Notes under the pieces: generated by a model
The model's input: the letters and a program-made list of their open reading frames with translations, nothing else
Databases searched by the model: none
What the model was told of the DNA's origin: nothing
Made by a program: the position numbers and the translations under genes
Shown here: one piece after another, positions 4,906 to 45,855 of the stretch
Numbering within the stretch: the stretch's first letter is position 1
Layout: every line of letters begins with the position of its first letter
Origin: an uncultured virus (IMG/VR IMGVR_UViG_3300020421_000004)
Taxonomy: Duplodnaviria > Heunggongvirae > Uroviricota > Caudoviricetes
Length of the DNA stretch: 64,000 nt
Reading direction: 5' to 3' (one strand)
IMG/VR virus record: IMGVR_UViG_3300020421_000004

Positions 4906-6354
4906 TTACTTAAGTCGATTAAATTCGTCCCTATCTTCATCAGTTATGGTTCCACCGGAACCAGTAGTCTGTAGAAAGTAATTTAGAAATACCTTTTGTA
5001 AATCAGCAACTTTTGGTTCGTTGCGGTCAGTACAGTATCGGTCTGAAACTTCTTTCCACTTTACGTAGAAAGGTTCGTCTCTTAAGACTGCTTGAGCCAT
5101 AACTTGTGTAAGGAGTTCTTCCTCGCTCAAAACTATGGGTGCTTTGACAGACTTTGTTTTTCTTTTCTTGATTACTGCTACTGCAGTTTTATCCAGCGCA
5201 TCCTTGTCAAAGGCTGGGCTTGTTTCAAGGTTAGAAAGCGAAGTCATTATTGTCGCAGTCTCTGTTTTTAAACCGTATACTATGGCGCCACTTTTAGTGA
5301 CACCAAACAGTTCTTGGGGTTGTAACGAATCAGTGGAGTCAGTCAGTGTAAAATTATTTACACTGGGTACTTGTCTTCTTGTTTCAACCGCATCGAACCA
5401 TGTTGGGTAAGTTATACTACTACTTCCTGATATATTATCTGGACTAGTATATATTATATTATTACTTATAGAAGTTGTTTGGACTTCAGATGTTTCATTG
5501 AGTACTCTAACGACTACTTTGCCATTAGTTGTATCATATAAAACATTTAGTTCACCAAATGGTTTACTTTTCTTTATTTTCGTAATTGCTTTACGAATAG
5601 TGCCGCGAGGCATTTCACAAAGGAAAGCCAAGTTAGCAATGTCGTAATCATTTGGTAGAGCATTTTTTACGATGCTTTCATTTTTTATGCTGTGTATTAA
5701 ACTGAGTGAGTTAACATCGAAACCGCTTGCATAATATGCATGCGAAGTCAAAGGCAAATTCGTAGTCGCACCATGTTCTAACAGGTACGATGTCATTGGT
5801 TGGTTCCCACTTGAGGGAGACCTGAGTTCACTTGTGACTATATCACAAAAGTACCCATGTACGCCCTTTATTGGACTCCAAGCCAAAGGAATTGCAAATC
5901 CAGTCAAACCTAGTTCTAGGTTGTATATTTGAGTAGTATTATTTACTCGTCTTGTGTTATGGTTATATCCGCTTCGCCCCGAAGGGCTAATTGGAATATC
6001 CGACTGCTCGTTTGCATTTGCATGTACGCCCGAAGTGTAAATATTCCTTCTTAACCGGGATTTACTTTCAGGGTCGCTCGTGCCTTCAAGTAAGAAATCA
6101 CCTTCAATTGGAAGGCGAGTCTTCTTAGTTAATTCATTTAGTTTCACAAACAAAACATTACCGATTTTGGCGTGTAAAGCGAAAGACAAATTGTTGTCTT
6201 TAACTTGTATATACGCCTTTTCGATGTTGTAGTCTTGCTTGAGAAAAATACTCATCATATTACGATACGCTGAGCGAAACTGCTCGGGTATTTCTACCGT
6301 CGTTGTTTTTCTGTCGCCAGTGCATCCTAAGTTAATTAGTGTGTTTGTATTCAT
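4906..6354 (-). CDS. hypothetical protein (482 aa)
   Basis: Long ORF after a TACTAG site. Confidence 0.85.
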   Translation of the reverse strand: MNTNTLINLGCTGDRKTTTVEIPEQFRSAYRNMMSIFLKQDYNIEKAYIQVKDNNLSFALHAKIGNVLFVKLNELTKKTRLPIEGDFLLEGTSDPESKSRLRRNIYTSGVHANANEQSDIPISPSGRSGYNHNTRRVNNTTQIYNLELGLTGFAIPLAWSPIKGVHGYFCDIVTSELRSPSSGNQPMTSYLLEHGATTNLPLTSHAYYASGFDVNSLSLIHSIKNESIVKNALPNDYDIANLAFLCEMPRGTIRKAITKIKKSKPFGELNVLYDTTNGKVVVRVLNETSEVQTTSISNNIIYTSPDNISGSSSITYPTWFDAVETRRQVPSVNNFTLTDSTDSLQPQELFGVTKSGAIVYGLKTETATIMTSLSNLETSPAFDKDALDKTAVAVIKKRKTKSVKAPIVLSEEELLTQVMAQAVLRDEPFYVKWKEVSDRYCTDRNEPKVADLQKVFLNYFLQTTGSGGTITDEDRDEFNRLK

Positions 6355-6376
6355 TTTAATCTAGTAGAGATTAGAT

Positions 6377-6571
6377 TTATTCTAGTTTCTCAATTTCTTC
6401 TTGCGCGTCTTGAGGTTTGACCTCTAGCACAAAATCGCTAAAAACCTTAATAAATTCTTTAATCTCGGTAAACAAAGCATTGTTTGCTTTTTGTAAAGCA
6501 TTGCCTGCTTTTTGTAAGTTGATAAGTTCATCAAGTTTTTCTTCCACACTCATACTTAAGCCTCCATCCAT
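6377..6571 (-). CDS. small coiled-coil hypothetical protein
   Basis: ORF; likely start at MSVEE after GGAGG. Confidence 0.6.
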   Translation of the reverse strand: MDGGLSMSVEEKLDELINLQKAGNALQKANNALFTEIKEFIKVFSDFVLEVKPQDAQEEIEKLE

Positions 6572-6831
6572 GATTCCAAAGTTTTTTGCTCCTTTGGTAT
6601 TAGGTTGTCGGCATCGTATAATGGCGTTATGCCATATTCTGGTGCTCGGTCTTCTTGTGATAAACTAACATAAAGGCTTGCTGCAGATTTTAATGCAGTG
6701 CCTTCTGTGCGAAATGTCGCACAATCAAGCCAGTATTGTTCGTCAAATTGTTCACCTATTTCTAAGTGAGCAACTTCGAACTCATGGCGTTTTCTGGTGT
6801 ATCGTACAAATATTGATGTATTATCTGACAT
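6556..6831 (-). CDS. hypothetical protein
   Basis: CACCAG-AAGGAG then ATG. Confidence 0.7.
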   Translation of the reverse strand: MSDNTSIFVRYTRKRHEFEVAHLEIGEQFDEQYWLDCATFRTEGTALKSAASLYVSLSQEDRAPEYGITPLYDADNLIPKEQKTLESWMEA

Positions 6832-6843
6832 ATTATCTCCTTC

Positions 6844-7423
6844 TGGTGAAGAGTAAACTATATTGTTTTTTTGAGAAAGTCCAATCCGTGAAATGCATTA
6901 GCATTCGCCATTGGTCTGTGTCTTGTCTTTCAGGTAAGAATCGCTTAATTTTGCGCCGTGTTAACGGTTTGCCCTTTTATAGTGTTGAGCGGAATGTTCC
7001 GCGTCCACCTTGTGCTTTGCGGATGCAAAGTAGATGGGTTGCACCTCTAGATTATACTAGGGGTGACCTTAACAGGGTCAAAAGTAACGATGTCTTCCCT
7101 AGGCTAGAACTGCACGCTTCAGAGTGCTGTTTCTATCCTCAATCTTTCTCAAAAAAACTTACACAAATGTTAATGTTGGTTTTTAGGCCAAAATCGCAGA
7201 AAACAATTTTTGTTTAACCCTTAACAAAGGGTGTTGTTGTTTGCCGCAATCAGGTGTGCAGTGTTAACTTGCGTCACACCGGTTCCGTCAAAGTGTCATC
7301 AAGAATAAGACCAGGTCTATGGTTTTACTCTTACATGATTTGTGTCACTTTGCGGACTCGGTGTTTCGGAAGTTAACACTACGTCATTGGCCTTGCGGCC
7401 TCAGTAGTTTAATCTAACTCTTC
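6844..7423 (-). ncRNA. putative 580-nt structured RNA with K-turn, 7-bp terminal stem and ACCA tail
   Basis: 5' GAAGAGU pairs with 3' ACUCUUC+ACCA; K-turn 7379-7407; long internal stems GUAGUGUUAACUU/AAGUUAACACUGC and GUUUUUUUGAGAAAG/CUUUCUCAAAAAAAC. Confidence 0.7.
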
Positions 7424-7715
7424 TAGTGAATGGTAAGTCCTAATGTGATAATATTATGAGTCACAAGTTCTTGTGGCGATAGTTCATTAATTCTCGTTGA
7501 ACCACGTCAAGTTTATCTTGACAGTGTAATATTATCACTGGTGTCAGAACGGCTAATAATCGATGAAGACCGAAAAACATCGTTTTGCGGATGTAATGTA
7601 TCTTCACGTATTGTTAGGGCTTTGCCAGTGTAGACTGACAAGGGGTTTATGCCCGTTCAGGCTCTGACGCCATACGTCATTAGCCTCTCGGCTTCAGTGT
7701 GTGCTTTACTCATTC
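7424..7715 (-). ncRNA. putative 292-nt K-turn RNA
   Basis: GAAUGAGUAA/UUACCAUUC termini + ACUA; K-turn 7671-7701; stems GGCGUCAGAGC/GUUCUGACACC and GUGAUAAUAUUA/UAAUAUUAUCAC. Confidence 0.7.
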
Positions 7716-8023
7716 TAGTGGAAGTTTCTAAATTCTCAGTGCAACTGTTTGACGCATGTCATGCACCATTACCTGACCCCAAAGGGCAGGTTATGGCAAG
7801 GCATAGCGCATCGCGTAGCGTGCTGCATGGGGCTGGTTGTGCTGAGACGTCTCATAATCCGGTTCTTCGACTATTGACGTGAAATTTATTTTCACGGTGC
7901 AGGTGTAGAGTGCATACTCTACTCCGACGGTTCTTATCGGCGGGATAAGAAATCGGCACGTATCTATAGTCGCCGGTGTTGAGGCGTTTCGTCATTGATT
8001 TTAATCTCAGATTTTACTCTTCC
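7716..8023 (-). ncRNA. putative 308-nt K-turn RNA
   Basis: GGAAG/CUUCC termini + ACUA; K-turn 7989-8011; nested hairpins. Confidence 0.65.
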
Positions 8024-8052
8024 TAATTGTTGGTTTCTGTCTCTTGTCCATC

Positions 8053-8172
8053 TAGTGGAGGACTAAGCATTTTGATGAAATGAGATAGTTCGCCCATCAT
8101 AGGCAACCGCTATCTCAAAAAAGAGACAATAAAACAAGAACCAACATAACTTGTTAATATGCTTACTCCTCC
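8053..8172 (-). ncRNA. putative 120-nt RNA with paired ends
   Basis: GGAGGAGUAAGCAU pairs with AUGCUUAGUCCUCC (one mismatch) + ACUA. Confidence 0.6.
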
Positions 8173-8180
8173 TAGTAGTA

Positions 8181-9041
8181 TCAACCAGTGATACAATTAC
8201 ATTTTTCTGATTTACAAGTAGTACCATCTGCAAGCAGATTGTTCAATTTGTAAATATTTCCACCATCATATGAGATGGGGTTTTCTGGACATCGCCTAAC
8301 TTGTCCCATTGGGTCAACGTCTACCATCTGGAAATCTTCTCCAGGGCAGTTGTTAATTCCAAGTAGGTTGTTTAGAGCAATGTCTCCAATGTATTTTTTA
8401 CCGTCTCCGGTAATGTTCACCCACGGATATTCTGTGAATACTCGTTGGTAGTTTTCCCAAAACTTAAAACCTTGCTGCTCGTAAATCGAGAGCGGTTTGT
8501 AAATTAGGTGTTGTACAGTGTTAGGGTAATTAATAGACTCCAACATTTCTCCAAATGCATCTTCATTTTCATAAAGCCATTCAAAGACCGTTGGGGTCCA
8601 AAGTAAATTGTAATTAATTACAGTAGTAGAGATTTTACTAAGGTCCCATTCTAGGTGTTTAGTTTGTTCCATAAAATCCTGTATGCTTTCAAATCGCATA
8701 TCGTCTACTGAGATAGTCAGAACATCTAAGTTCTGAAAAAATACTTTGTCATCACCGGCTTCGAGTGTGCTCGCCACAGTTGTTACACTTGTGTTGAAAC
8801 CCAAACTTTTGGCGTAGAGTATATATTTTTTAGTCATCTCAAAAGACCCAGGAAATGGGTTCCATGTTATTGCAAAGTCAGTATAACCATTTTCCGCAGC
8901 AGTTTCAATTGCTCGTAAATAGTATGCTTCTGACTTGGTTGCATTTCTCATCTCTTTTGTAACATCTGTTGTTAAGTAGCACCCTTCGCAACTGAGTTGG
9001 CAGTTGAAACTGGGTGCGATTGAAAATATTTTTTTATTCAT
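8181..9041 (-). CDS. radical SAM superfamily protein
   Basis: CQLSCEGC (CxxxCxxC), TISVD, Cys-rich C-terminus (SPASM/twitch-like). Confidence 0.85.
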   Translation of the reverse strand: MNKKIFSIAPSFNCQLSCEGCYLTTDVTKEMRNATKSEAYYLRAIETAAENGYTDFAITWNPFPGSFEMTKKYILYAKSLGFNTSVTTVASTLEAGDDKVFFQNLDVLTISVDDMRFESIQDFMEQTKHLEWDLSKISTTVINYNLLWTPTVFEWLYENEDAFGEMLESINYPNTVQHLIYKPLSIYEQQGFKFWENYQRVFTEYPWVNITGDGKKYIGDIALNNLLGINNCPGEDFQMVDVDPMGQVRRCPENPISYDGGNIYKLNNLLADGTTCKSEKCNCITG

Positions 9042-9054
9042 TTTCTGTCTCTCC

Positions 9055-9507
9055 TAGTGAAAGAAACTATATTATTCTGCGGTTTTGGATTTATTCCAAA
9101 TGGCACATCCCGACTTATCGGGGAGGGACAAAAATTTCCTAGACAAATTTTGCTCGAGATTCGTGTTAATCAAAATAACCCAACTTTGTTGTCTCTGCGC
9201 GCCTGCGCTGTCGAGTCTCTGGCTTTACTATTGCCGATCTCGGTTATTTATTAATACGTTCCTCGTGAAAAGTTGTCGAAAATGTTTTGCCGTGCATAAG
9301 CAGAATTTTTCCAATAGTACACAACTAACGGAAAAGACAGAGAACACGATTTTATTTTTGCCGCACTTCTAATTGTATTTTTAGAAGTTCTGAAAATACG
9401 TTGTTCTCACGTAAATGTGAAATAGTGTTCTGTACTTGTTCTGTTAGTTGTTAACTCTTGGAAAAAAACGTCATTGGCATTAACTGCCTCAGTGTTTTCT
9501 TTCTTTC
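9055..9507 (-). ncRNA. putative 453-nt K-turn RNA
   Basis: GAAAGAAA/UUUCUUUC termini + ACUA; K-turn 9468-9493 followed by a long stem; no minus-strand ORF. Confidence 0.7.
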
Positions 9508-9524
9508 TAGTAGAGTTGTTACAC

Positions 9525-10256
9525 TCATAGTGCCAAGATAAACTCGGCACCTTGTTGTAGAACAACAAATCCTAAGTTGTTGTCCATGATGATTATCGAC
9601 CATGAAGTAGCAGGCCCTAGGTTATTACGCCCAGCCTTTACCATCTTCATTATGATATCATCTATTTGTTTATACCTTTCAGTTGAATCAAATTTTTTCC
9701 CGGCAGTGATTTCATCACACACGCTTTTCCGCCAATTGGCGTACTCAACATGGCTTGTTTCAGTTGCTGAAAAATGGACTTCCAAATGAGACTCTTGGCC
9801 ACTAGCAACGCTTTGCAAGCGGTGCTTAAAGTGGTTGTGAATCTCGGTCATAAAGTCGTCATTGGACATTCTAAAAACATCATCATCGTCTGGTAGACGA
9901 GGAAGTTTGTGCTTTTTTAACCATGATGTATCTGTCGTCAAAGCAATAATTTCACTCCTTTTTAGTGGAACGTTTAATTCTTTTGCTTTTGTTTTAACAG
10001 TCGTCAGGTCTGGTGAATTTCGAACAATTTCTGCAAGTTGCTGGTGGGCGATTTTAAGTTGTTCCCTTTCCGCTTTAGCAGCGTTCTTTTGGTTCAACTT
10101 ACGTTTTGCGTCCGCCTGCGTCTCGAGTTTTAAGTTCTCTCCGACAACTTTAGTGTTGCTTTGGTTTGCTAAAATAAACGCAACAAGTGCGCTGTTATTT
10201 GCTTCCAGTTTTTTCAATTCATTGGTATCTATATTAATTATTATTTCAATAGTCAT
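9525..10256 (-). CDS. hypothetical protein
   Basis: TACTAG-GAGA leader. Confidence 0.8.
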   Translation of the reverse strand: MTIEIIINIDTNELKKLEANNSALVAFILANQSNTKVVGENLKLETQADAKRKLNQKNAAKAEREQLKIAHQQLAEIVRNSPDLTTVKTKAKELNVPLKRSEIIALTTDTSWLKKHKLPRLPDDDDVFRMSNDDFMTEIHNHFKHRLQSVASGQESHLEVHFSATETSHVEYANWRKSVCDEITAGKKFDSTERYKQIDDIIMKMVKAGRNNLGPATSWSIIIMDNNLGFVVLQQGAEFILAL

Positions 10257-11012: not shown

Positions 11013-12779
11013 TCATTCGAGTTCTGTCAGTTCTGCAACTTCTACGTTGTCAGATTGATTACTCGAATCGTCAACAATATTTCTTCGGCGATTCTTATCG
11101 TTGGTCTTTCCAGACTTTCCGATAGAACTGTTGTTATTCGCTCTTCTCATGGATCCATTGTCAACAAAGGATCGCATGACTTCAATTTCGTCTTTCTTAG
11201 TTTTGCTAGTTGGAACCAGCGCCTCTAAGACGTAAACGAGATCTCTCATCTCAAGTGGACGGTCTTCGCTAAAAGACCTAGTCATTGCTTCTTCAATACC
11301 GTCTTCGATGTTACGACCTGAGAACTTGGCAGTTTTGCGAACTAGTTCTTTAATATCAAACTTGCTTGCATCTTGCTTTCTTAGTCCCAGGTGGATTTTA
11401 ATAATCTCTTCTCTTTCTTCAGGTTCTGGAAGGTCAATAAAGAATCTTCCTTCGAATCGGTCTATCAATTCTGGAGCGAACTTATTCATGTTATTTGCTG
11501 TAAAAACAAAGAACACTCCTGAGTCATCTTCCTGCATGAATGTAAGAAACTGTCCGAGAACGGCATCGTGTGCGCCGCCATCGTGGATTCCTTCTGACTT
11601 ACCAAGTAACTTCTCTGCCTCGTCAACGAAGACGATTAGCGGAGCCGCTGCTTTAGCAATCTCCAATAGTTTATGCACTTTTGCTTCGGACTCCCCAACT
11701 AGGGAGCCTTTCAGGTCAGTTGCATCTACCATTAGTATATTCATGTTCATTTCTTTGGCTGCTGCTTTTGCAATGGCTGTCTTTCCACAACCAGGCACAC
11801 CAGCCATCAAAAGTCCGCGAATGTTACGAATAAATCCGTAGTCTTTCGCAGAGTTTGTAAACCGCTTCGATATCAGTGTAACCCATTCTTTCAAAGGGGT
11901 CAATCCACCGATTTGTTCGAAGCCTGTTGTCGGGCGAACCAGGGTAAAACCCGCTCGCTCAACATTTTTTCTTTTTTCATCGAGGATGAAACTTACGTCC
12001 CATCTACCATTGTTGATTACACTCAAGGTGAGCACATCATCAATAGCGTTTCTTGTAAAACCCGCACAGGCATCTGTGAAGGTTTCGATATCTTTTTCAC
12101 TATAATTCCTAAAGGTTGCTATGGTTTGTGGCCTAAGCATCCCATCGGATTCATATGCAAATTGGTGGCGAATACTTTCAACCAAGTCAAGCCTAGTAGC
12201 CTTATCCGGTAAAGGATAATTTATTAGTCTTACAAATTGGTCTAGTTCCTTAGGAACGTTTTCGCTTGTCCATCTTGAAGGGTTGAGCATGACAACATTT
12301 TTGTTGGCACCTCGTAATATTGTTTCAAACAAGTTTAGTTGTCGATCTATATGTTCTGTATTAGAGTCGATAAAGTTGTGCCAGTCTCTGAGGACGAAGA
12401 TTGCTCTTCTTCCTTCATTATGGCCATCATAATCTGTCATGTATTGAACTGCAAACGGTACTTGACAGCCAGGGAAGTCTTCATCACTGGCTTCAATAAC
12501 ACCGGTTGGTCTAACTGCAATATCATCGACTGCAAAGCCGGATACATTTGTTAGTATTTCGTGTTCTTCATTTTGATCATCTTTAGCATATCCAGCGTAC
12601 TCTTCAAAGCCACGGGATACTCTCCACACCAATATTCTTGGTGTTTCAGTAAACTGCTCGCAAGCAGATTTGACTATTTCGTCAATTATGCATTGCGTCT
12701 CTGGCGACGATATCGCCAAGCAGGGTATAGATGCGTTCACTATCATTCTTAATTCATTTTTTGTATGGTTTTCATTCAT
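11013..12779 (-). CDS. Ycf46-like AAA+ ATPase
   Basis: Walker A GVPGCGKT, Walker B VFVDEAEK, FTAN, DRF; degenerate N-terminal AAA domain (FVLRDWH). Confidence 0.9.
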   Translation of the reverse strand: MNENHTKNELRMIVNASIPCLAISSPETQCIIDEIVKSACEQFTETPRILVWRVSRGFEEYAGYAKDDQNEEHEILTNVSGFAVDDIAVRPTGVIEASDEDFPGCQVPFAVQYMTDYDGHNEGRRAIFVLRDWHNFIDSNTEHIDRQLNLFETILRGANKNVVMLNPSRWTSENVPKELDQFVRLINYPLPDKATRLDLVESIRHQFAYESDGMLRPQTIATFRNYSEKDIETFTDACAGFTRNAIDDVLTLSVINNGRWDVSFILDEKRKNVERAGFTLVRPTTGFEQIGGLTPLKEWVTLISKRFTNSAKDYGFIRNIRGLLMAGVPGCGKTAIAKAAAKEMNMNILMVDATDLKGSLVGESEAKVHKLLEIAKAAAPLIVFVDEAEKLLGKSEGIHDGGAHDAVLGQFLTFMQEDDSGVFFVFTANNMNKFAPELIDRFEGRFFIDLPEPEEREEIIKIHLGLRKQDASKFDIKELVRKTAKFSGRNIEDGIEEAMTRSFSEDRPLEMRDLVYVLEALVPTSKTKKDEIEVMRSFVDNGSMRRANNNSSIGKSGKTNDKNRRRNIVDDSSNQSDNVEVAELTELE

Positions 12780-12795
12780 ATTTTTGAACTCCTTC

Positions 12796-14964
12796 TGGTG
12801 ATAGATTTATGGGAAGCGGGAATTTTGGTAGCATTCTTCCCTACATATAGTCGGGTTGCATATTACCAATCGCCAGTGATAAAGTTAAAACAGTGATTCC
12901 ATAAGTTGTTTTCTGTTTTGTTTACATAATTTTAGCCGGCTGCTTAATTTAAAGCAGCAACCCAGACACCCTAAGTGTCTAGAATAGAGAATTGGTCAGC
13001 GTGCTAAACGCACCTTTCCCGTATTCTCCCTTGGGCCAGACGCCGCGACTTGCCAGGTCCCCAGTGTGGGAACTTAGTATGGCGGCTTGAAAATCTTTTA
13101 CAGCCAAATTGGCCATTGCTTTACCACGGCTCTTCCAGGTACTGGACGAACCATTTGTGTGGTATGAAGCACCATTAGTCGTAGAGCCAGAAAAGAACTA
13201 CCTACATTTTCAATGTAAATTCCTTTCTGGCTAGCGTTGTTTAGAAATGTCACATGCTGTTTAAACGCAACCAGTACACAACACCCTTGGGCGCGGCTAA
13301 CTTGGTTTGTGTTCACATGTTTGTAAAGTTCTTTTTGGGCAGTTCTAGTGAACTGTTTGCGCTGCAGGCGCTGCTGGACATGGTCCGTGCACTGAGCGTT
13401 AAGAATTCAGAGGAATTATATCCACTGATTATGGGTATTCAGTATCCTGTTTTCTAAGAAGTGGTCAGTTATCGGACTAGTTGTCGGACAACACCACGAA
13501 CTTATTCATGACCCGGGCGCGCCACTTCTCATTCTAGAGTGGTTTGCTGAGGTAGGAACTTCTTTCCATATGATTTTACATTCTTTTTCTAACGTGTCTA
13601 CTATCAGGTCAGTTGGCCAGGTTCGTAGAAGTTAGACTAATGTTTTGATGTTCTTGTTGTAAACTTATTTATCGTTTAATTCACACTTAAATTTTCGTTG
13701 TCCCAATCCACCTGGCACTTGTACATTGTACTTGTGTCATAGTCGACGGGTTTACTTCATTGTCTTGAGAATTCTTTCGAATACTCTCTGTGCAGGAGTC
13801 GTAGTTAACGTTCTTTTCTATGGTACATGTTATGTCCATAAATCGATTTTCGTTTCCACTCGTGCGCATGTATTACGCGTGTAGAGTCTTGTCCATAATC
13901 CTTCTGAAAAGGTTTTATAGGCATATTTTGTATCAATAATCATCCCGTCTCTGCCATGCATTGCAATGGCTTCGTCCGGGAGTCGTCTTCGTAGTCACCA
14001 GGGTGGGACCACAGATGTTAATCATTGATTGTAAACTATTTTATGAGTTATTCGCCAACTGTTTAGTGGCGCACGGATGTGCACTTTATCGCGAGTGAGC
14101 ACCAGGTGCTCCTTCTGGGTTACACATGTATTCCATGTTAATTCTCTGTAAACTTTTTTTGGTCGTTTAAACCGAGGTAATCACAGTACTCTCTATGGAC
14201 CAGACGGGCCATGGAGTAGAGTGGCGGTAGAATCTTTGTGCTAATAAAAGTCACATTCTACTGTAAATCATTTTCTATCGTGTTCGTATTCGGTTTTCCA
14301 CACTCCAGAGGTACCTGGTGTGAGACCGCGGTCCATTACCACGTGTCTTCAGGAGGAGAAAGAACGGTCCGCCGCTCTTTACTCACCGAGAACTTCCATG
14401 CTGCTTGGGCTCCTAAAGAAATTTCCAATTTCCTTAAGGTTTGCAAACAGAACTGCTTAGTGACCAACACCAGTGTTATAGTAACCAGGTGCTTATTCAA
14501 TTAAGCCTTGTAGAAAATGCCTTTCGTTTACATCACAGTTTACTCATTGCCTAACTTTTCTGGCAGCGATGTTGCTGCTGGAGTCAGGTCGAAGACACAG
14601 TCTTCTTTAGCCGAAGACCTAATTGTCTCCGCTTGAAGACACTATGTCTTCTTCAGAGTGTTCTACAAAAGCATAGCATGCGTTTAGTGACATTATCTCC
14701 CCTGATGTTACCATAGGAGGGATCGAAACTAATCGCGGTAGTCGTTAGACTGTTAGCGTGCTTTCTTGCGTGTTTGACAATTCGATAGGTGTTTTGACTT
14801 CTCCAATCTATGGAGAAGTGCTTTACTTAAATCGTATTGTGTGTGTTTTACGTGTATAATTAGTTTTGGGGACCCGTTAGGGTCATCCCTCCTATGGTAA
14901 CATAACGTCATTGGTTATTTACCTCAGTATTATTATCACTAATCTTCGTAATCCATAATCTATC
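12796..14964 (-). ncRNA. putative ~2.17-kb structured RNA with K-turn, paired termini and ACCA tail
   Basis: GAUAGAUUAUGG pairs with CCAUAAAUCUAUC+ACCA; K-turn 14902-14933; 19-bp perfect stem (~14707-14725 with 14885-14903); dense hairpins; no credible ORF. Confidence 0.65.
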
Positions 14965-15164
14965 TGTTGGGCGACATAAGTTTTGCAATTGCTTATGCCG
15001 CACCGTTGGTGCAAGTGTATGCCTTTACATCAAGTCGAGGATAGCCAGCCAAAGCAGAGTTGTGAGGCTCTGCTTATTCTGCTCCAAATTCCCGACAAAT
15101 TTATCCTTCGGGCAACTGATCAAGTTACTTTTACTTGGTGTAAAAGTTTGTGTTATACTCTTGC
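14965..15164 (-). ncRNA. putative 200-nt structured RNA
   Basis: Bounded by ACUA|G and AACA|G; several hairpins; no minus-strand ORF. Confidence 0.45.
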
Positions 15165-15207
15165 TAGTAAGGGTGATACGGTTAGTATCCCCAATTGGAT
15201 GTGCGTC

Positions 15208-15420
15208 TCAACCTCTGTGGATTGATTCGCCGCCGGTAGCACCGTCACCTTCGTACTTGATGTGAGTTTGGGTAACCTTTGCATCAGTCATTCCCAAAGC
15301 CCCTTTCAAGAACTTGGTTAGGTCTAAACATTGTTGGTCTGGAAGACCATCAATCTTTACCGTCATTTCCCCTGTGTCGGGGTCATAGTAAATATCTACT
15401 TGCTGACTCATCAGACCCAA
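15208..15420 (-). CDS. DUF2997-like protein
   Basis: DPDTGEMTVKIDG...QCLDLTKFL..ALG; usual partner of DUF1257/Ycf46. Confidence 0.75.
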   Translation of the reverse strand: MGLMSQQVDIYYDPDTGEMTVKIDGLPDQQCLDLTKFLKGALGMTDAKVTQTHIKYEGDGATGGESIHRG

Positions 15421-15875
15421 CCCCCTGAGGTGTTGTTCTTTTTATTGCCAGAAGTAAATCCGCCTGTTAAGCGGATATGCTTTACTTTCTTTTCTTTGCC
15501 ATCCTTCATAATCACAGCGTCTTTTACGTCGCCGTTCATTTTCATGCCTGCCAACTGTGGGTTGCCTTTGAGTGCTTTCTTAACAACACTCTTGACATAT
15601 GATGTATAGACAGGATTCATGATCGTTTGGATCTTCTTGGCATCGCCATAGCCGGGGTTGTATTGCTTTACAGCATACGTTCCGTCTTGCTTTGCTTTCA
15701 GACCAATATCATGTTTACCTGATTGACGAATAACGTAATCGCATCTTTCGCGGATTCCATTACATATTTCGTTCTTCAGTATCGTCGCATTAGGCATAGC
15801 CTCTTGTAACGCTTCTTCTATACAATCATTGTTTTCTACAGTCAGGCTGGTTTTGCCTTCCATTTTGTGTGACAT
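15411..15875 (-). CDS. DUF1257 (Ycf35-like) protein
   Basis: MSH...EAL...DYVIR...DIGL...DGTY. Confidence 0.75.
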   Translation of the reverse strand: MSHKMEGKTSLTVENNDCIEEALQEAMPNATILKNEICNGIRERCDYVIRQSGKHDIGLKAKQDGTYAVKQYNPGYGDAKKIQTIMNPVYTSYVKSVVKKALKGNPQLAGMKMNGDVKDAVIMKDGKEKKVKHIRLTGGFTSGNKKNNTSGGWV

Positions 15876-16055
15876 ATTTTTTCTTTCTCCTTACCCTTTT
15901 CGGGTCTAATAACCAAAAAAAAAATGCCCCCAACACTCACGATTCGATAATCGTAAACATTGGGAGCCTGTTTTAAACTTGGTGTTTAATTCTAGTAAAC
16001 GTAGGTTGCGGGCAGAATATTATATTCCATCCGCAACTTTACGTTATTTGTGATA

Positions 16056-17003
16056 TCATTCTTCGCTGTCATTATGCATAGAATAAAATGCAGCCATAAA
16101 TTCGGGATTCGAATCACCCAAAGTTACTGGGCGTTCTTTCTCAACTTTGGCTTGTTGCTTCTTGTATTTGCCAAGTGCTTTCCATATTCTGGAACTCATT
16201 CTTAGCCATAGGAAATTGTAGCGATTATCTCGCCTTCCTCTCAAGTGTCTTATGATACGGTGTTGAAACTTTGGTAGACGCATAAATTGCGTTCGTGCAG
16301 GTTGGTCACCTTTATCACGATTACCAATGTGGTATTTTGTTCTTCCACTTGCGTCTGGCTTTACAGCCATTCGCTCTACCTCAAAGGCTACTTTAATTAC
16401 AGTAGCATCTTTGTGGTTGTTTTTCATTTCACCTTTGTAACTTAAAACTTCGAGTTTAGCAGGGACGTGGGTTTGAAACCAGTCTTCTGCGTCTTCCTTA
16501 GTTCTGTCAGCAGGTTTTGGATAACTGGAAACTTTCTTTCCTGTCATCGCTTTCTTCCCTGTTGTAAGGAAGCCTGTAATACAATCTGCTTTCCATTCAG
16601 TGTCTTCAACCCACTTAGCCTCGCTAAATGGATATGTTTTATTGAATACGATATCGCAGTCTTCTTGGTCGATGTATCCTTCGGTCATTAGTATGGCCAT
16701 AACATCGATTACAAGATTTGGGTTTGCTTTATACCAGTTGCTTTGGAAACAATCTACTAGAAAGTTTCCCGACAACTTGTGCGGCATAGAAGCAAGAGTT
16801 CTAGCAAGTTCATTACAATTTGGTTTCTCTTGGAGTAATATCCAATAAGAATTCTTAGGGTCTTCACCTATTAGTTCGAACTTCAAGGCTTTGCCTTTAA
16901 CGTTCTTTCTTCTAGGTAATTTACCTCTCTTTGTAATTGTAACTGGACCTATTCTTCTAGATCCATCATTGCTTTTGTTTTTATTATAGTCTTTATCAGT
17001 CAT
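16056..17003 (-). CDS. basic hypothetical protein
   Basis: ORF after hairpin + TACTAG. Confidence 0.8.
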   Translation of the reverse strand: MTDKDYNKNKSNDGSRRIGPVTITKRGKLPRRKNVKGKALKFELIGEDPKNSYWILLQEKPNCNELARTLASMPHKLSGNFLVDCFQSNWYKANPNLVIDVMAILMTEGYIDQEDCDIVFNKTYPFSEAKWVEDTEWKADCITGFLTTGKKAMTGKKVSSYPKPADRTKEDAEDWFQTHVPAKLEVLSYKGEMKNNHKDATVIKVAFEVERMAVKPDASGRTKYHIGNRDKGDQPARTQFMRLPKFQHRIIRHLRGRRDNRYNFLWLRMSSRIWKALGKYKKQQAKVEKERPVTLGDSNPEFMAAFYSMHNDSEE

Positions 17004-17411
17004 AATAGTCTCTCTCTAGTAATCCCCTATAGGGATAAAGTATGTATTAGTAATATATTATACTAATAGCCTTTATATTTATCATTATTCTTTGTATTCA
17101 TAAGTGTTCATTCTAATGCCGCCTGCAAATGTTACAGGTTCATTATTGTACAATTCTTTCATTGCGTGTACACTTTGTGCCATACTTGTTCTTAATGGTA
17201 TTGCCATCTATTAACTAGGATTGCAATTTACCTAGTTCACTTATACCTCTCTTGGTCACTATTTCAAGTCTCTAGAGGAAGATTTTCCACAGCCGTAAAT
17301 GCTTCACGACAAGTATGCTTACGTCAAGACAGTAAACAGGGACTGGGCGCTTATTTTGCGCGGTCTATCTAAAAAAAATGACATTGATTATTTTACTAAT
17401 CAATGCCGTTC

Positions 17412-17540
17412 TATCTGATAAGATTGGTAGTCTTATCTCAATGAATCCTTCACTGAATAAATTCAGTTCGAGACCCAAAGCGTTTATCCGGAAAGATATC
17501 CGGATAAATCGTCTTCCCAATAAAGGAAAGATAATCTATC
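17412..17540 (-). ncRNA. duplicated ~125-nt structured RNA, copy 1
   Basis: Near-identical to 21471-21595; paired ends; UUUAUCCGGA/UCCGGAUAAA hairpin. Confidence 0.65.
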
Positions 17541-17641
17541 TGATGTAAGTGCTCTGGGGTTATCGTTATCAGGTTGTACAGTCCTTTCCTTTCCCCCCGC
17601 GAAGAGAACCTGGCCCCACATAGTGGTAGCGAGGTTACCTC

Positions 17642-17678
17642 CCTTACATTATTATAACGTTTCATTTTATACCGGTAT
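17642..17678 (-). promoter_or_regulatory. conserved promoter-like element, copy 1
   Basis: ATACCGGTAT-N8-ACGTTATAATAATGTAAGG; extra palindrome at 17696-17705. Confidence 0.75.
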
Positions 17679-17731
17679 ATGGCATTATGCTTTCAATACC
17701 GGTATAACTCTGTCTAGTAGTGGGATATCGC

Positions 17732-17950
17732 TTATCTTATAAGAAAGCGTAGTTCTTTTTGGACATCTAATGATTGGCTTGCGTCCACTGTAAATATGGT
17801 ATCACCTTGTAGGAAGATTTGCAATCTTTCTATCTTCGGATTCGTGGTATCTCGTACCATCTGCCATGCAGTGACGGCTGATATTACAATATCAGTCATT
17901 CCATCAGTTGTCTTTATATCCCTTAATGTTTTATCGTATTTAAACGTCAT
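17732..17950 (-). CDS. hypothetical protein
   Basis: Hairpin + TATTAG-ATG. Confidence 0.7.
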   Translation of the reverse strand: MTFKYDKTLRDIKTTDGMTDIVISAVTAWQMVRDTTNPKIERLQIFLQGDTIFTVDASQSLDVQKELRFLIR

Positions 17951-17995
17951 CTAATAACGGCTCACTTAGAGATGTCCCTAAGCAGCGTTATGGTT

Positions 17996-18214
17996 TCAGC
18001 GCATCCTTCCGTTGCTAGCATGTTTCCTTCCGTGTCTACTGGAAGTACTGTTATTTCTAGCAATGTTCTTGCGGTGTTCTTGTAGCCGACTCATGTCTTC
18101 ATAGCGGGACATTTTAACATCCCACCATGAATTATTCTGGAGACATACTGGTCTCTCAGGTTGTTCAGTTCGTGCGTCTACTTCCTTTCGGTATTCTTCA
18201 ATATCCCGGGGCAT
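17996..18214 (-). CDS. hypothetical protein
   Basis: TACTAG-ATG. Confidence 0.65.
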   Translation of the reverse strand: MPRDIEEYRKEVDARTEQPERPVCLQNNSWWDVKMSRYEDMSRLQEHRKNIARNNSTSSRHGRKHASNGRMR

Positions 18215-18231
18215 CTAGTAAAAGAAAGATT

Positions 18232-20192: not shown

Positions 20193-20269
20193 TGGCGGGC
20201 CTAGCAGGGTTCGAACCTGCGACATTCCGGTTAAGAGCCGGACGCTCTACCTGACTAAGCCATAGGCCC
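20193..20269 (-). tRNA. tRNA-Lys(CUU) with encoded CCA
   Basis: Acceptor GGGCCUA/UAGGCCC, anticodon arm UCCGG-CUCUUAA-CCGGA, T-loop GGUUCGAAC, G-CCA end. Confidence 0.97.
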
Positions 20270-20634: not shown

Positions 20635-20674
20635 CTACCTATATAATAAGTGCGCCCCGTAGGACGGCTTATAT

Positions 20675-20884
20675 TTATTCTTCACTCCACTGTTCTGCGA
20701 GTGCTTTGACTTGTTTCCAAGTTGTTTTCGCTGTGCCAAGTGGCTCCATCGAACTAAGTATAACATCGTCGTCGTCCAGTATGTCTTCTACTGCTTTACG
20801 CCAACGAATATTTTTCTCAGCAATCTTTAATAATTTGATTATCTTTGCTTGTTCATCTGTTTGTGTCATCATTTCTTCTGTCAT
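20675..20884 (-). CDS. hypothetical protein
   Basis: ORF after ATCA|G. Confidence 0.65.
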   Translation of the reverse strand: MTEEMMTQTDEQAKIIKLLKIAEKNIRWRKAVEDILDDDDVILSSMEPLGTAKTTWKQVKALAEQWSEE

Positions 20885-21470
20885 GTGTATCTGATAAAAA
20901 AAAAGACGCCACAGTTGTTACACCGTGACGCCTTTCCTTTTGTTTCTTCCCAACTTGAAATTAATCAAGCCCTTCCATGAGCAGTAGATTCAACTTGCAT
21001 TGCTGAATTTCCCACTCGCCTAAGATGTAGATGTGTAATTCCTATCCGGAGCAGGGGGCCGATCTTATGCGGCTGGTCCCAACATCTGTCATGTTATGGT
21101 ATCGTCAGTCTTACAGAGACAAAATCTGTAAGTCCTATTCGGTCATAGAGAAACCGCCGGGGTAGGTGTTGTGCACCTCCATAGCAGTTTTTGTTTATCC
21201 TCTCTCAAAATGATACTATAACAATAGCATCTAATATCTATCTGATACATAGCAGTCTGAACCTTGCTATGAAAATTATATTTTCCCATGGCCTCTCGGC
21301 TCCTGTATCATGGGAGGCATATTAGTTAGTCTATCGGACATTTGCCTTTTTTTGATTTCGTTTATCATTACCACCCTGGCAACCCAAGACACCTTAGAGC
21401 ACACTTTCAAAATGCTCTAAGGTGATTCAGACTTGGTTACTGTTGGTATGTGGTTTGTACCCGTAGGTTC

Positions 21471-21595
21471 TAATAGGATTGGTAGTCCCATCTCAATGAA
21501 TCCTTCGCTGAATAAATTCAGTTCGAGACTCAAAGCGTTTATCCGGAAAGATATCCGGATAAATCGTCTTCCCAATAAAGGAAAGATAATCTATC
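21471..21595 (-). ncRNA. duplicated ~125-nt structured RNA, copy 2
   Basis: Near-identical to 17412-17540; bounded by AACA|G and AUUA|G. Confidence 0.65.
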
Positions 21596-21943: not shown

Positions 21944-21953
21944 CTTAATCTCC

Positions 21954-22455
21954 TATTAACCGTTGGGAGGCGGCGAACCGCCCCTCCATTGGTTTTTATT
22001 ACTCAGTTGGTTTATAGTCTGGTTTGAGTAGTCCAGACACGATGTATTCATCTCAAATGCTAAAATAAGACACTCCTCGAGGTTCCTCACAAAGTCCATC
22101 CTGCGCCTTAAAGCGGTCAGGTTGTTAATGACAATGCGTATAAGTTCACTTCCAAAAGGAAGGTACTCGAAGTTCTGTTTTTAAACTTAAATTGCTAATC
22201 GCAGTTCAACTGTACATTTCTGCACCGTCCATCCCCCCTTACGGGCTTTTGCTGCTCTTGGCCTTATTTTAACTCGAATCATACGGGATGATAGAGTTTT
22301 TGTAGTGGGTTTTGACACCCACTACGGAATCTCACGAACCGGGCCGAAGCCCGAAGTAAATGCCGCCTAAGCAGCGAACGTGAGTTGGCAGCCTGTGAGG
22401 GCTGCCGGCATCTAAAAATGCCTTTTCTGTTAAAGAGGGTGCTTTCCCTCCTTAC
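21954..22455 (-). ncRNA. putative ~500-nt structured RNA with H-type pseudoknot
   Basis: Directly downstream of promoter copy 2; GC-rich hairpins; 13-bp long-range stem; pseudoknot 22000-22038. Confidence 0.55.
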
Positions 22456-22486
22456 ATTATTATAACGTATTAACCGATACCGGTAT
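22450..22486 (-). promoter_or_regulatory. conserved promoter-like element, copy 2
   Basis: Same motif and spacing as copy 1. Confidence 0.75.
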
Positions 22487-22594
22487 GTTACAATAATCTC
22501 TTACTGGTAGCCATCTAGGAATAATCCCCTAGTGGCTCTATGTCCGCTTTAGTAGGTGCGTCGTCCTAGGCGTTTCAGGCCATATTATCGCGGC

Positions 22595-22726
22595 CTAACC
22601 TCCACAGTTTATGCAAATAGATGAACCCCACGCTAGGCTGTGTATTCGTCCTTTACAACGAATACATCTAGGCCAACCGTCATTAAGTTCATCTTCTTTG
22701 CTATTCAATTCTTTTATTGTTATCAT
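22595..22726 (-). CDS. small zinc-ribbon protein (43 aa)
   Basis: MITIKEL...CIRC...CINCGG*; GGAGGAG SD. Confidence 0.6.
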   Translation of the reverse strand: MITIKELNSKEDELNDGWPRCIRCKGRIHSLAWGSSICINCGG

Positions 22727-40777: not shown

Positions 40778-41373
40778 GCTTCCACCTCATGTACTGCCAT
40801 TCTTATATCTTTTAGGATTCCTTCCATTTTGGAGACAGCGTCTAGTAACTCCTGTCTGAACTCCGGTTCCTTCTTACATCTTTCTAAATATATTTCCATC
40901 AATTTACTTTCTATCATTTGCGTCTTCTCCTTAACTATGTTTGCAGCAATCCTAGTTACATTGAACTATACCTTGGGTGCGGCTATGCCTATACCCACCT
41001 ACAGGCGGTATATAAGTTAATGGGGCCTTATACTTATAGCAAATGGGTAGGGACCTGGTTCTCATATGTATAACGTCCGTTACACATATACATATACCCT
41101 TTTACATATAGGCGGATAAGTGTACATATCAGGGGTAAAAGGCTATTATTCGATGTTTTCACTAGGGTATAATAGTAGGTTGCGGGAATTGGGCATGGAA
41201 AAACAGATTATTGGTTGCAGCACAATAGGAGTTGTTATCAAAAGGAGGTTGTCCAACCCCGCAATATAACCGAGTGGGCAGGTGATTATAACCCCATCTC
41301 AGGCAAACATAGTTTATATGAATACTAGGTTAGAATGACAATGTTTAATTACCTTCGGTTACGAGCAAGGCTC

Positions 41374-44437: not shown

Positions 44438-45855
44438 TGTTTGATGGATTAATACTCTTGATGTTAACGGCATTCTTCCCTTTGATCTTATATTGGGGCA
44501 TATCGTACTTCTTTGTATGCAGAGATGTCATCAGATACATGTTAGATGTAGTAGGTTGGAGAGGTTAATATGAGTTTAGGTGCAATATGGCCTTGTGATA
44601 AGTGTAAAAGGCACGTTCCTTTTCACGAATTGAAAGCAGGGCTATGCTGGATATGTCAGGAACGGGTGATATAATATGTCGATTTTAGATGCTATTGGTA
44701 GTATCTGTGCCGGTGCATGTCTAATTTATTTTGTAGTTCTGGTGATCTACACTGCGATAGATATGCAATATTTACCTGGAAAGTCTTTTTTAGTAGTTAA
44801 AAAGAGGGATGATGATGAAAAGTAACGAAGATTTTTGGAAAGCAAAGGTTGGACATTCGTTTATGACCTTAGTTGCAGCAGCCAGACACGTACTTGACGT
44901 GAAGCCAAATAGCCTAAAATACCAAGAATCATACGATAAAATACTTTATTCATTGTCCATCGTGGCACATGAGTTCGATGCAATGTATCCTGGTGGAATT
45001 ATAATGGAGGAAGAGTGATGACTACAGAATACGACTGTCCTATTTGCATAGAATTAGCAACACCTATCAAGAGAAGTATGAGCATTGGTAAGATCCACTA
45101 TATGGATTCCCGATACGTAATGACCTGTGACGAATGTAAGTTGGTTATTTCTACCAATAAATGGAGAGAACTAACTTCTGCAGCGTTGTACAAAACAAAA
45201 CAGGAGGAAGAATAATGCTTGTGAATCGAACTAAGTTAGAAAAATATGAAGAAAAAGATCCCCTATGGTGGTGTCTACATCATAAAAATACACTTTCGTA
45301 TCTCAAATTAAGAGTAAAACAATGGCAAGATGCTGAAACAGAAGAAGAAAAAGATAAAATCATGTCTCTTATCAATGTCGTTGTGCATGCAGATTAGGTG
45401 GTTTAGGAATGGCGATATTAGAAACACTACTGATAATGTTAGTTATATTGCTTGGTTTGCTATTTTTAGGGATACTTGCTCTATATACAGCATTTAGAGC
45501 GCAAACAAATAGACTATTAGACATGAAAAAAGACTTCGATAGAGGTCGACAAGCAGTTGAAAAACGGTTTAACAGGAAGTGATTCGGTGAAGAAAAAACC
45601 CAACGAGTGGCTACAGCAGTACAAACTAAACGATGTTTTAAACAGAATGCAGTATGAAATGTACGAGTTGCCGAACAGAGTTTTGTTTAGGTATGAATGG
45701 ATAGTCCTAACTGGGTTTGTGTTATTTGCTTTAGCCATGACTAATGAGTTAGGCTATACCAATTTTAGCGGTGATTTGTTTTGGGCACTCTGTGGAGCAG
45801 CACTTGCAGGTGAAGGAATCGTCGAATTATACTATGAAAAGAGGAAGCGTGGAGA

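Follow-up and report, generated by a model that had tools for sequence, protein, structure and literature searches.

Positions 12796–14964 of the 64,000-nucleotide (nt) DNA recorded in IMG/VR as uncultured virus IMGVR_UViG_3300020421_000004 (this whole stretch is referred to as the window) form a non-coding locus that is real and conserved, and which probably makes a large folded RNA from the minus strand, just upstream of the gene of an AAA ATPase. The comparison of related sequences indicates that the kink-turn located near the 5' end of this locus and the stem of 19 base pairs (bp) that follows it belong to a conserved, multi-copy and strand-specific RNA family, and that the pairing of the two ends, proposed in a first-pass annotation of this DNA, is backed by a second covarying helix. 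The reading that we prefer, with a confidence a little above even, is that of a single large structured RNA, leader or intercistronic, which extends over about 2.17 kb (14964 to ~12797), is closed at its base and is anchored by the kink-turn. This object most likely consists of conserved 5' and 3' domains and of an expandable, fast-evolving middle (about 1.8 kb). Its features and the upstream border are listed below; LR1 and LR2 designate the two long-range helices.

15208–15408, minus: small open reading frame (ORF) of about 66 amino acids (aa), the upstream border of the non-coding stretch, outside the RNA fold
14964–14953, minus: 5' strand of LR1, GAUAGAUUAUGG, the 5' end in the first-pass annotation; pairs with 12812–12800
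14942–14933, minus: 5' strand of LR2, UUAGUGAUAA, the "ACUAG-type box" seen 5' of every kink-turn module
14927–14906, minus: kink-turn 1 (CUGA 14927–14924, hairpin 14923–14913, AAUGACG 14912–14906)
14903–14705, minus: P1 domain, a 19-bp stem of 14903–14885 with 14723–14705, which encloses 161 nt
14591–14652, minus: three GAAGAC/GUCUUC hairpins, a small tandem array
14590–12936, minus: fast-evolving interior, with conserved islands and recurrent A-rich GUUUACA boxes
~13860–13960, 13620–13690 and 13400–13500, minus: conserved islands of the interior, collinear in the related loci L005 and L006
~13330–13370, 13148–13198 and 13010–13053, minus: further islands, also collinear in L005 and L006
12882–12873, minus: 3' strand of LR2, UUAUCACUGG; pairs with 14942–14933
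12816–12800, minus: 3' strand of LR1, CUUC followed by CCAUAAAUCUAUC (the latter at 12812–12800), the 3' end in the first-pass annotation
12799–12777, minus: ACCAG box, GGAG and start of the AAA gene (ACCA 12799–12796, GGAG 12792–12789, ATG 12779–12777)

Coding capacity and conservation of the gap

The sequences cited in the first-pass annotation are found on the minus strand, which is also the strand of all the neighbouring genes. Its claim that 2.17 kb are devoid of any credible ORF holds, with one correction. No credible ORF is found in 12780–15207; the longest frame between two stops in 12780–15410 has 119 codons, each frame contains 39–61 stop codons, and the search for ORFs under an alternative code, which had been suggested, shows that no reassignment of a single stop opens a long frame. 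A Pfam search with 20 pieces of the stretch gave no match of note. When the stretch is compared with close relatives by tblastx, the similarity is equal in all six frames, and the only frame-specific conservation is that of the small ORF 15208–15408, which is the correction mentioned above: it is conserved at the protein level in about 40 related loci (tblastx, tblastn), and the Pfam search assigns it to no family, with only a weak hint of DUF2997 (E 0.11). This ORF is a real small gene, and the ORF-free stretch is therefore 12780–15207 (2428 nt). The G+C content is 0.426 in the stretch and 0.404 in the window.

Related loci were collected by scanning metagenome contigs with an alignment of the AAA protein, which gave 80 loci (labelled L001 and so on; L001 is the same genome as the window, with 99.9% identity). 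In the 41 loci that contain both the small ORF and the AAA start, the gap between them measures 550–2881 nt in 38 cases and about 25 nt in three, and it never contains a long ORF; the long non-coding space is thus a property of the family, while its length is free. The flanks of L004 are almost identical to those of the window, whereas 12780–14396 is only 78.6% identical and contains insertions and deletions. This pattern points either to a very high rate of evolution or to recombination limited to the interior. L005 and L006 are 94% identical to the window in the left flank, and 75–79% identical in the AAA gene. From the identity patterns of these three loci, the stretch is both a fast-evolving region and a junction between differently related flanks.

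The kink-turn module

The module, found via the conserved block 14894–14970, is made of CUGA, a short capped hairpin and (N)AUGACG. We take the hairpin to be the C helix of a kink-turn, NAU to be its 3-nt bulge and the GA of each box to form the tandem G-A pairs, while C...G presumably closes the other side. The K-turn that the first-pass annotation had noticed is indeed there, at 14927–14906, directly before the 19-bp stem, and it is one member of a family with many copies, all on one strand. A covariance model, R1, whose seed alignment included the L001 copies of the five modules of the window, detects five modules in the window, all on the minus strand: kink-turn 1 (14962–14892, 41.1 bits, E 8.5e-07) and the following four.

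9528–9455, minus: kink-turn module 2
8044–7976, minus: kink-turn module 3
7736–7661, minus: kink-turn module 4
7444–7368, minus: kink-turn module 5

With E at most 0.01, R1 gives 93 matches in the 80 loci (0.70 Mb), many of them outside the seed; all 93 are on the gene strand and none on the other, and there is no match in 1.24 Mb of unrelated phage and archaeal loci. Although ORFs of at least 90 aa cover 70.6% of the bases, 92 of the 93 matches fall outside them, at a median distance of 649 nt from the next ORF start (10th percentile 351 nt).

When the pattern is searched without the hairpin filter in the 80 loci, 76 matches are obtained on the gene strand versus two on the other, and at least three closing pairs are present in 56 of the 76. 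These unfiltered matches show about 25 different stems, most commonly capped by GAAA, but also by GCAA, GUAA, GAGA or UUCG. Alignment of 43 of the 55 distinct filtered instances (near-duplicates were dropped) shows CUGA, hairpin and (N)AUGACG in 43 of 43, as well as the C-G pair that flanks the G-A pairs. It is important to note that the first three pairs of the hairpin were a selection criterion, so that the percentage of paired positions is partly obtained by construction. The covariation of the hairpin in these modules amounts to 39 cells changed on both sides versus 12.2 ± 2.5 after shuffling, and it collapses in slid controls; the pairs of the C helix are of the GC, AU, CG and UA types. 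As far as sequence alone can tell, the module has the defining features of a kink-turn. The homologues of 14927–14924 in L008, L010 and L015 read CCGA instead of CUGA; the position opposite the C of AUGACG is therefore free to vary.

Apart from a tRNA, no family of Rfam reaches its gathering score in the whole window, and nothing relevant appears at E up to 10 over 12500–15700 and 6300–9700. No L7Ae family protein was found by Pfam among 72 ORFs or pieces of the window. R1 has no match in two Poseidoniales genomes, where an empty answer is uninformative.

Regarding the rest of the window, 6355–8180 is a second mostly non-coding region, in which three of the modules lie in tandem with a spacing of about 300 nt (8010, 7697 and 7404). 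Near 6832 is the start of an ORF on the minus strand (at least 90 aa), before which lies CACCAGAAGGAG, the box that also precedes the AAA gene; a plus-strand ORF with a TTG start, 6678–7217, has no Pfam family and may be spurious. Five other stretches of 0.56–1.2 kb (17004–18231, 20635–21432, 21944–22639, 40778–41334 and 44438–45556) contain no ORF of at least 80 aa on either strand, and R1 finds no kink-turn module in them.

The P1 domain and the GAAGAC hairpins

The P1 stem starts two nt after AAUGACG. The perfect 19-bp stem of the first-pass annotation is present and covaries in six homologues, where it measures 15–19 bp and encloses 119–178 nt: pairs 1–8 are invariant, while pairs 9–15 each show two to four Watson–Crick or G-U types, with zero mismatches. 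The domain contains covarying inner hairpins, and AAACAC motifs are repeated in its junctions. In the other four modules of the window, a long hairpin also comes right after the kink-turn, but the sequence of its arms differs each time; one of these four hairpins has a compensating change in L004. The three GAAGAC/GUCUUC hairpins that had been noticed are found at 14591–14652, and L004 has one additional copy of this unit.

Pairing of the ends

The pairing of the ends proposed in the first-pass annotation corresponds to LR1. This duplex (−15.6 kcal/mol) is not remarkable in itself, since 4% of the random pairs of 30-nt segments from the same stretch match its stability, but the complementarity is kept in relatives. 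By-hand comparison shows compensatory changes in L008, L011 and L018/L023, and G-U changes in L005 and L010. The duplexes formed across lineages are mostly weaker than those formed within one locus (47 of 448 cross pairs are at least as stable). The ACCA end is present at 12799–12796. We rejected the idea that it is a CCA-like tail: it is part of a conserved CACCAG box just before GGAG, and a purine-rich box of the GGAG type precedes the ATG of the AAA gene in all lineages compared. As regards similar boxes elsewhere, the minus strand has a sequence close to the LR1 box, GATAGATTATCT, at 17529–17540 and 21584–21595, and a search for GATAGATTATGG as a general promoter box gave 10 matches (with at most two mismatches) versus 5.8 expected, which is not discriminating.

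The covariation of LR2 is clearer. Its strands read GUGAUAA/UUAUCAC in the window, GUGAUAU/AUAUCAC in L005, GUGAUAAU/AUUAUCAC in L006, AUAGUGAU/AUCACUAU in L008 and L015, and GUGAC/GUCAC in L017, L018, L020 and L023. In the lineage of the window, the 3' strand is always 82–116 nt before the ATG, and the best partner in the window itself, 12882–12859, ranks first of 2124 windows downstream of the kink-turn.

In the loci with minimal gaps (552–670 nt), RNAalifold pairs the two segments that immediately precede the kink-turn and the AAA start codon; this helix is invariant within the group, and therefore brings no covariation. In a sister lineage (8 of 9 loci; L025, which is poorly aligned, was left out), RNAalifold predicts a 12-bp and a 9-bp helix at equivalent sites, with another sequence, spanning 600–800 nt. 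The 12-bp helix, GAACAGUUUUAU/AUAAGGCUGUUC, shows U-G in most sequences and U-A in one or two, while columns of the 9-bp helix show UA:3 CG:3 UG:2 and UA:5 CG:3. The sister-lineage helices contain 24 U-G cells versus four A-C cells, an excess that fits an RNA of the gene strand but would not follow from the symmetry of DNA. The 3' strands of the long-range helices are placed some 20–80 nt ahead of the AAA start codon.

The position of the partners points in the same direction. The best partner of the 20-nt box located 5' of the kink-turn is at most 120 nt from the next ORF start in 28 of 56 units, and at most 40 nt in 13, compared to 11.5 and 4.4 units, respectively, under a uniform expectation. 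When the boxes are dealt to other units, 14 and 9 partners fall within 120 nt, and 8 and 5 within 40 nt. Four of the five units in the window have such a partner close to the next ORF start. The partner of the box of unit 9492 (9066–9043) ends 2 nt before an ATG and covers a GGAG-type box, that of unit 7404 (6378–6355) ends 1 nt before the ATG at 6354, and that of unit 7697 ends 4 nt before the start of the minus-strand ORF (at least 90 aa) at ~6832. We also ran looser scans of 38 × 40-nt duplexes, which are noisy; the 20-nt box gave cleaner results.

The interior

Between the conserved islands, the sequence is unrecognisable among the window, L005 and L006. Some islands reach a depth of 100–190 in a DNA run of another study, compared to 8–20 for the flanks, which suggests that these islands are common to more abundant relatives. 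The recurring UUUACA linker of the first-pass annotation is truly enriched: it occurs seven times on the minus strand versus 0.9 ± 0.9 in shuffled sequences, none of 500 shuffles reaching seven. In the other orientation, TTTACA occurs five times versus 1.4 expected.

The folding z-score had been suggested as a check. Using 20 shuffles each, it is −7.8 and −8.8 for two 1000-nt halves of the minus strand and −1.9 for the plus strand, but −6.35 and −1.5 for two coding controls, the AAA gene and the gene of a family B DNA polymerase (PolB). In 150-nt windows, the minus-strand folding scores of the coding flanks are like those of the gap. The strongly negative scores of the minus strand are therefore not discriminating, and we counted them neither way.

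The predicted minimum free energy (MFE) fold of the whole length was compared to L004. On the minus strand, 545 pairs are unchanged, 30 are kept after a change on one side, 12 are kept after changes on both sides, and 85 are broken. As a null, the substitutions of L004 were reshuffled locally in 500 rounds, which gives 111.5 ± 6.2 broken pairs, none of the 500 rounds going down to 85, and 7.4 ± 2.6 double changes, with 12 or more in 28 rounds. The substitutions therefore avoid the predicted stems of the minus strand; the effect is weaker on the plus strand, with 103 broken pairs versus 114.7 in the null (19 of 500). Most of the changed pairs are broken, however, so that most of the interior fold is unsupported. 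The covariation of homologues, which had been put forward as another check, thus favours a structured RNA for the kink-turn hairpin, P1, LR2 and the sister-lineage helices, but not for most interior pairs, which are not conserved.

Public libraries and transcription signals

Parts of the stretch are found in about 20 public marine runs from 13 studies, six of which are RNA libraries; near-identical stretches occur in both marine DNA and marine RNA libraries. Contigs from RNA libraries match 12349–12876, 14700–14964 and 15025–15363, among others, with few or no differences, which is no proof of transcription. One of them, of 268 nt, spans exactly 14700–14964; DNA carry-over is possible. Three RNA libraries have no contig in the bins 14172–14672, where a DNA run has one, but such contig data prove nothing. 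No spliced joint across 12800–14960, and no joint across the whole stretch, is seen among the contigs, which can miss one.

Regarding signals, the minus strand contains no run of five or more T between 15915 and 11506. A scan for sigma-70 promoters and terminators gave the same numbers as in shuffled sequences, and such a scan is unsuited to archaea. The strongest terminator-like site near the stretch is at 15915–15967 (minus), where a 19-pair hairpin is followed by T10; it divides the ORF 16056–17003 from a group formed by a 154-aa ORF, the small ORF, the stretch and the AAA gene.

Proposed model and alternatives

In the model that we propose, the RNA would start with the 5' strands of LR1 and LR2, followed by the kink-turn, whose C helix is a capped hairpin, by P1 with its AAACAC junctions, by about 1.8 kb of fast-evolving sequence, and by a 3' domain where the partner of LR2 precedes that of LR1, before the GGAG box and the AAA start. 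This domain would be transcribed with the downstream AAA gene, as a leader or as an intercistronic RNA, and the L7Ae protein of the host, or a relative, may bind the basal kink-turn. The closing helices would loop out the insert and bring together the upstream stop codon and the downstream ribosome-binding region, and closure may tune the translation of the AAA gene or couple it. The first-pass annotation had proposed a giant structured RNA. That the stretch is non-coding, that the strand is the right one, that the kink-turn is real, that the stem covaries and that the ends are held by conserved long-range helices all agree with it; a free molecule of 2.2 kb and a conserved interior fold are not borne out, the evidence consisting of contigs on the one hand and of mostly broken pairs on the other. 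The 3' end abuts a Shine–Dalgarno-like GGAG and the start of the AAA gene, so that the locus looks more like a giant leader or intercistronic RNA than like a stand-alone RNA of the GOLLD/ROOL type.

Several observations weigh against a single closed RNA. One coding control matches the folding z-scores, 85 of the 127 changed pairs of the MFE fold are broken in L004, and double compensatory changes number just 12 versus 7.4. No transcript start, end or continuity is seen, the public runs being available as contigs only, and there is no clear TATA-like box at a fixed distance upstream of the modules (53 units). In the by-hand comparison, LR1 is mismatched in four lineages (L005, L008, L015 and L017), and its 3' strand resembles an A/T-rich promoter box about 30 nt before the ATG. 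In the loose duplex scans, the ATG-proximal region comes first in just 7 of 26 loci, of which six belong to one lineage, and is among the top three in 9 of 26; these scans show no strand preference either, the gene strand giving the more stable duplex in no more than 6 of the 26. Covariation could also be imitated by inverted DNA sites. Last, three relatives have no gap, the small ORF lying 25–27 nt before the AAA gene, and the insert is dispensable for this reason.

It is possible, and we give limited weight to this alternative, that the stretch holds, instead of one molecule, several small RNA genes and promoter-like boxes arranged side by side, for instance a kink-turn RNA of about 265 nt (14964–14700) followed by other short units and spacer, and that the long-range complementarity is not used in cis. 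Such an array would suit the tandem modules that lie about 300 nt apart elsewhere in the window, the A-rich GUUUACA boxes, which recur seven times and are kept in L004, the poor conservation of the interior fold, and the RNA-library contig that ends exactly at the borders of 14700–14964, unless the latter results from carried-over DNA. On the contrary, LR2 covaries across about 2 kb and the sister-lineage helices across 600–800 nt, the best partners of the boxes are concentrated ahead of the next ORF, and the minus strand has neither an oligo-T terminator inside the stretch nor a consistent promoter box upstream of the modules. The inverted boxes may also act as DNA: they could be bound by a protein, form convergent promoters, belong to a replication or partition region, or mark the ends of a cassette that was inserted, and the covariation would then be a concerted change of two sites. 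We consider this improbable. It would explain why the complementarity seen in the loose scans is nearly symmetrical between strands, why TTTACA is enriched in both orientations (7 and 5 versus 0.9 and 1.4 expected), why the 3' box is placed where the TATA-like box of the AAA gene would be, why the gap is missing in three relatives and why the region is a junction of differently related stretches in L004, L005 and L006. But the excess of U-G over A-C in the sister helices is expected only of gene-strand RNA, the kink-turn flanked by the helices and its hairpins capped by GNRA or UUCG are features of RNA, all 93 modules are on the gene strand, the G+C content is not lowered, and neither a transposase nor a repeated cassette was found. 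It is very improbable that the stretch derives from a protein gene by decay or recoding, or that it is a gene interrupted by introns: some gaps of relatives do hold ORFs of 135–189 codons, but six ORFs from such gaps have no Pfam family, nor do the 20 pieces of the window, every frame contains many stops, no stop reassignment opens one, and the tblastx similarity to close relatives favours no frame outside 15208–15408.

A wider version of the single closed RNA that we prefer, rather unlikely but worth mentioning, is that there exists a class of giant "closed leaders", intercistronic inserts of 0.4–2.9 kb anchored by kink-turns of the L7Ae type, in which a helix would link the ribosome-binding region of an ORF to the end of the ORF that precedes it. 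Closure could serve either to hand over ribosomes, by coupling or shunting, or to excise the insert. In the latter variant, the RNA would be cut at the closing stem, like archaeal ribosomal RNA (rRNA) precursors and introns, which would release a stable, possibly circular, kink-turn ribonucleoprotein of up to 2 kb whose AAACAC motifs could bind a host factor.

The element and its host

Most ORFs of the window have no family in a Pfam scan. Those that do include the proteins below, listed together with the AAA gene and the only match at Rfam gathering score or by ARAGORN in the window.

11013–12779, minus: AAA ATPase gene, 588 aa, a family-specific N-terminal half and a classical AAA domain
20193–20269, minus: transfer RNA for lysine, tRNA-Lys (CUU)
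window ORF, 1562 aa: RNA polymerase subunit of the Rpb1/A type
other window ORFs: family B DNA polymerase (PolB), chaperonin of the Cpn60/thermosome family, serine resolvase, RNase H, glycosylase of the T4 endoV type

No capsid, portal or terminase family was found by Pfam among the 62 larger ORFs of the window, which covers only 64 kb, when related elements extend to some 140 kb and beyond. Hundreds of relatives of the AAA ATPase are present in marine metagenomes; their contigs reach 140–235 kb, and one of them bears the source name "Euryarchaeota archaeon". The closest cellular AAA domains found (40–42% identity) are from Poseidoniales and related archaeal metagenome-assembled genomes, while the closest phage relatives, such as the AAA-ATPases of Corndog-type mycobacteriophages, are about 27% identical. 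A search of IMG/VR with the AAA alignment returned only distant phage AAA genes (at most 34% identity), which we used as a negative set; IMG/VR returned nothing when it was queried with the AAA protein alone or with the stem 19-mer, and a DNA search of the non-coding stretch against a phage collection gave no match.

In its passages on "group D", PMC5434244 (Philosof et al. 2017) describes magrovirus-like genomes in which a DNA polymerase, a thermosome, a resolvase and RNA polymerase A are present and the morphogenetic block is missing; it does not decide what these genomes are. Where two later papers, PMC11706807 and PMC10160649, deal with group D, these elements are presented as devoid of major capsid protein, enriched in cellular fractions and possibly plasmid-like. 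All four gene types of group D are present in the window. By its gene content, the window fits these capsid-less "group D magrovirus" elements, which are associated with Marine Group II archaea (Poseidoniales); the locus probably belongs to a marine archaeal virus- or plasmid-like element.

The RNA family does not seem to have been described previously: a literature search returned nothing linking Marine Group II with kink-turns, nor IMES-1 with metatranscriptomics. At least about 4 kb of the 64-kb window is given to this one family of kink-turn-anchored RNA loci. If our reading is correct, the locus would rank with the largest structured RNA domains other than rRNA, the family would be the first RNA family described for group D elements, and archaea, whose translational control is poorly understood, would provide a natural example of an RNA closed over a long range beside start codons.

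Comparison with known systems

Kink-turns of archaea are bound by L7Ae, and the nearest likeness of our module is the internal D'/C' motif of box C/D small RNAs. The two share a CUGA strand and an (R)UGA-type strand, tandem G-A pairs, a 3-nt bulge whose last nucleotide is U, and a C helix that separates the two boxes, with the D-like box first and the C-like box second, as in an internal C'/D'. Unlike an archaeal box C/D small RNA, the module has a single D-like and a single C-like box, in this order around a hairpin, with neither the terminal pair of C and D boxes nor guides of 10–12 nt; its C-like box is AUGACG, not UGAUGA, and the RNA at whose base it would stand measures hundreds to thousands of nt, instead of 50–70 nt. 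No second box pair at guide distance is present in the module sequences inspected, and the best CD-box match in Rfam, snoU36a, is on the opposite strand, with 21.8 bits versus a cut-off of 45.

In archaeal rRNA operons, and in introns with a bulge-helix-bulge, flanking inverted sequences pair at the base of a large RNA. The processing stems of rRNA resemble our locus by this basal stem of flanking inverted sequences and by kink-turns of the L7Ae type. We recognised no bulge-helix-bulge motif in LR1 or LR2, and the contigs, which can miss a spliced joint, show none across 12800–14960. That there was no hallmark of a group I or group II intron, as stated in the first-pass annotation, agrees with Rfam: the best match to Intron_gpI, mostly in the AAA gene, has 13.4 bits (E 4.6), below the cut-off of 50.

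Long-distance RNA pairings that control or couple translation are known from the interactions in MS2 and Qbeta RNA and from the shunt leader of cauliflower mosaic virus. As proposed here, a helix between distant sites unites the end of an upstream ORF and the start region of a downstream one, or occludes the start, and the base of the structure comes shortly after the end of a small ORF. Our case, known from its sequence, differs by the archaeal host, by the basal kink-turn and by inserts of up to 2.8 kb.

Last, the locus resembles GOLLD, ROOL, OLE and HEARO, large structured non-coding RNAs of which several reside on phages and other mobile elements, in being a long, ORF-free, structured and conserved RNA locus on a mobile element, to which sequences give the only access. 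The covariance models of these RNAs, of IMES and, tRNA aside, of other Rfam families have no match at gathering score in the window. The differences are that the host is archaeal, that the interior is hypervariable instead of forming a conserved core, and that the RNA is joined to the gene downstream.

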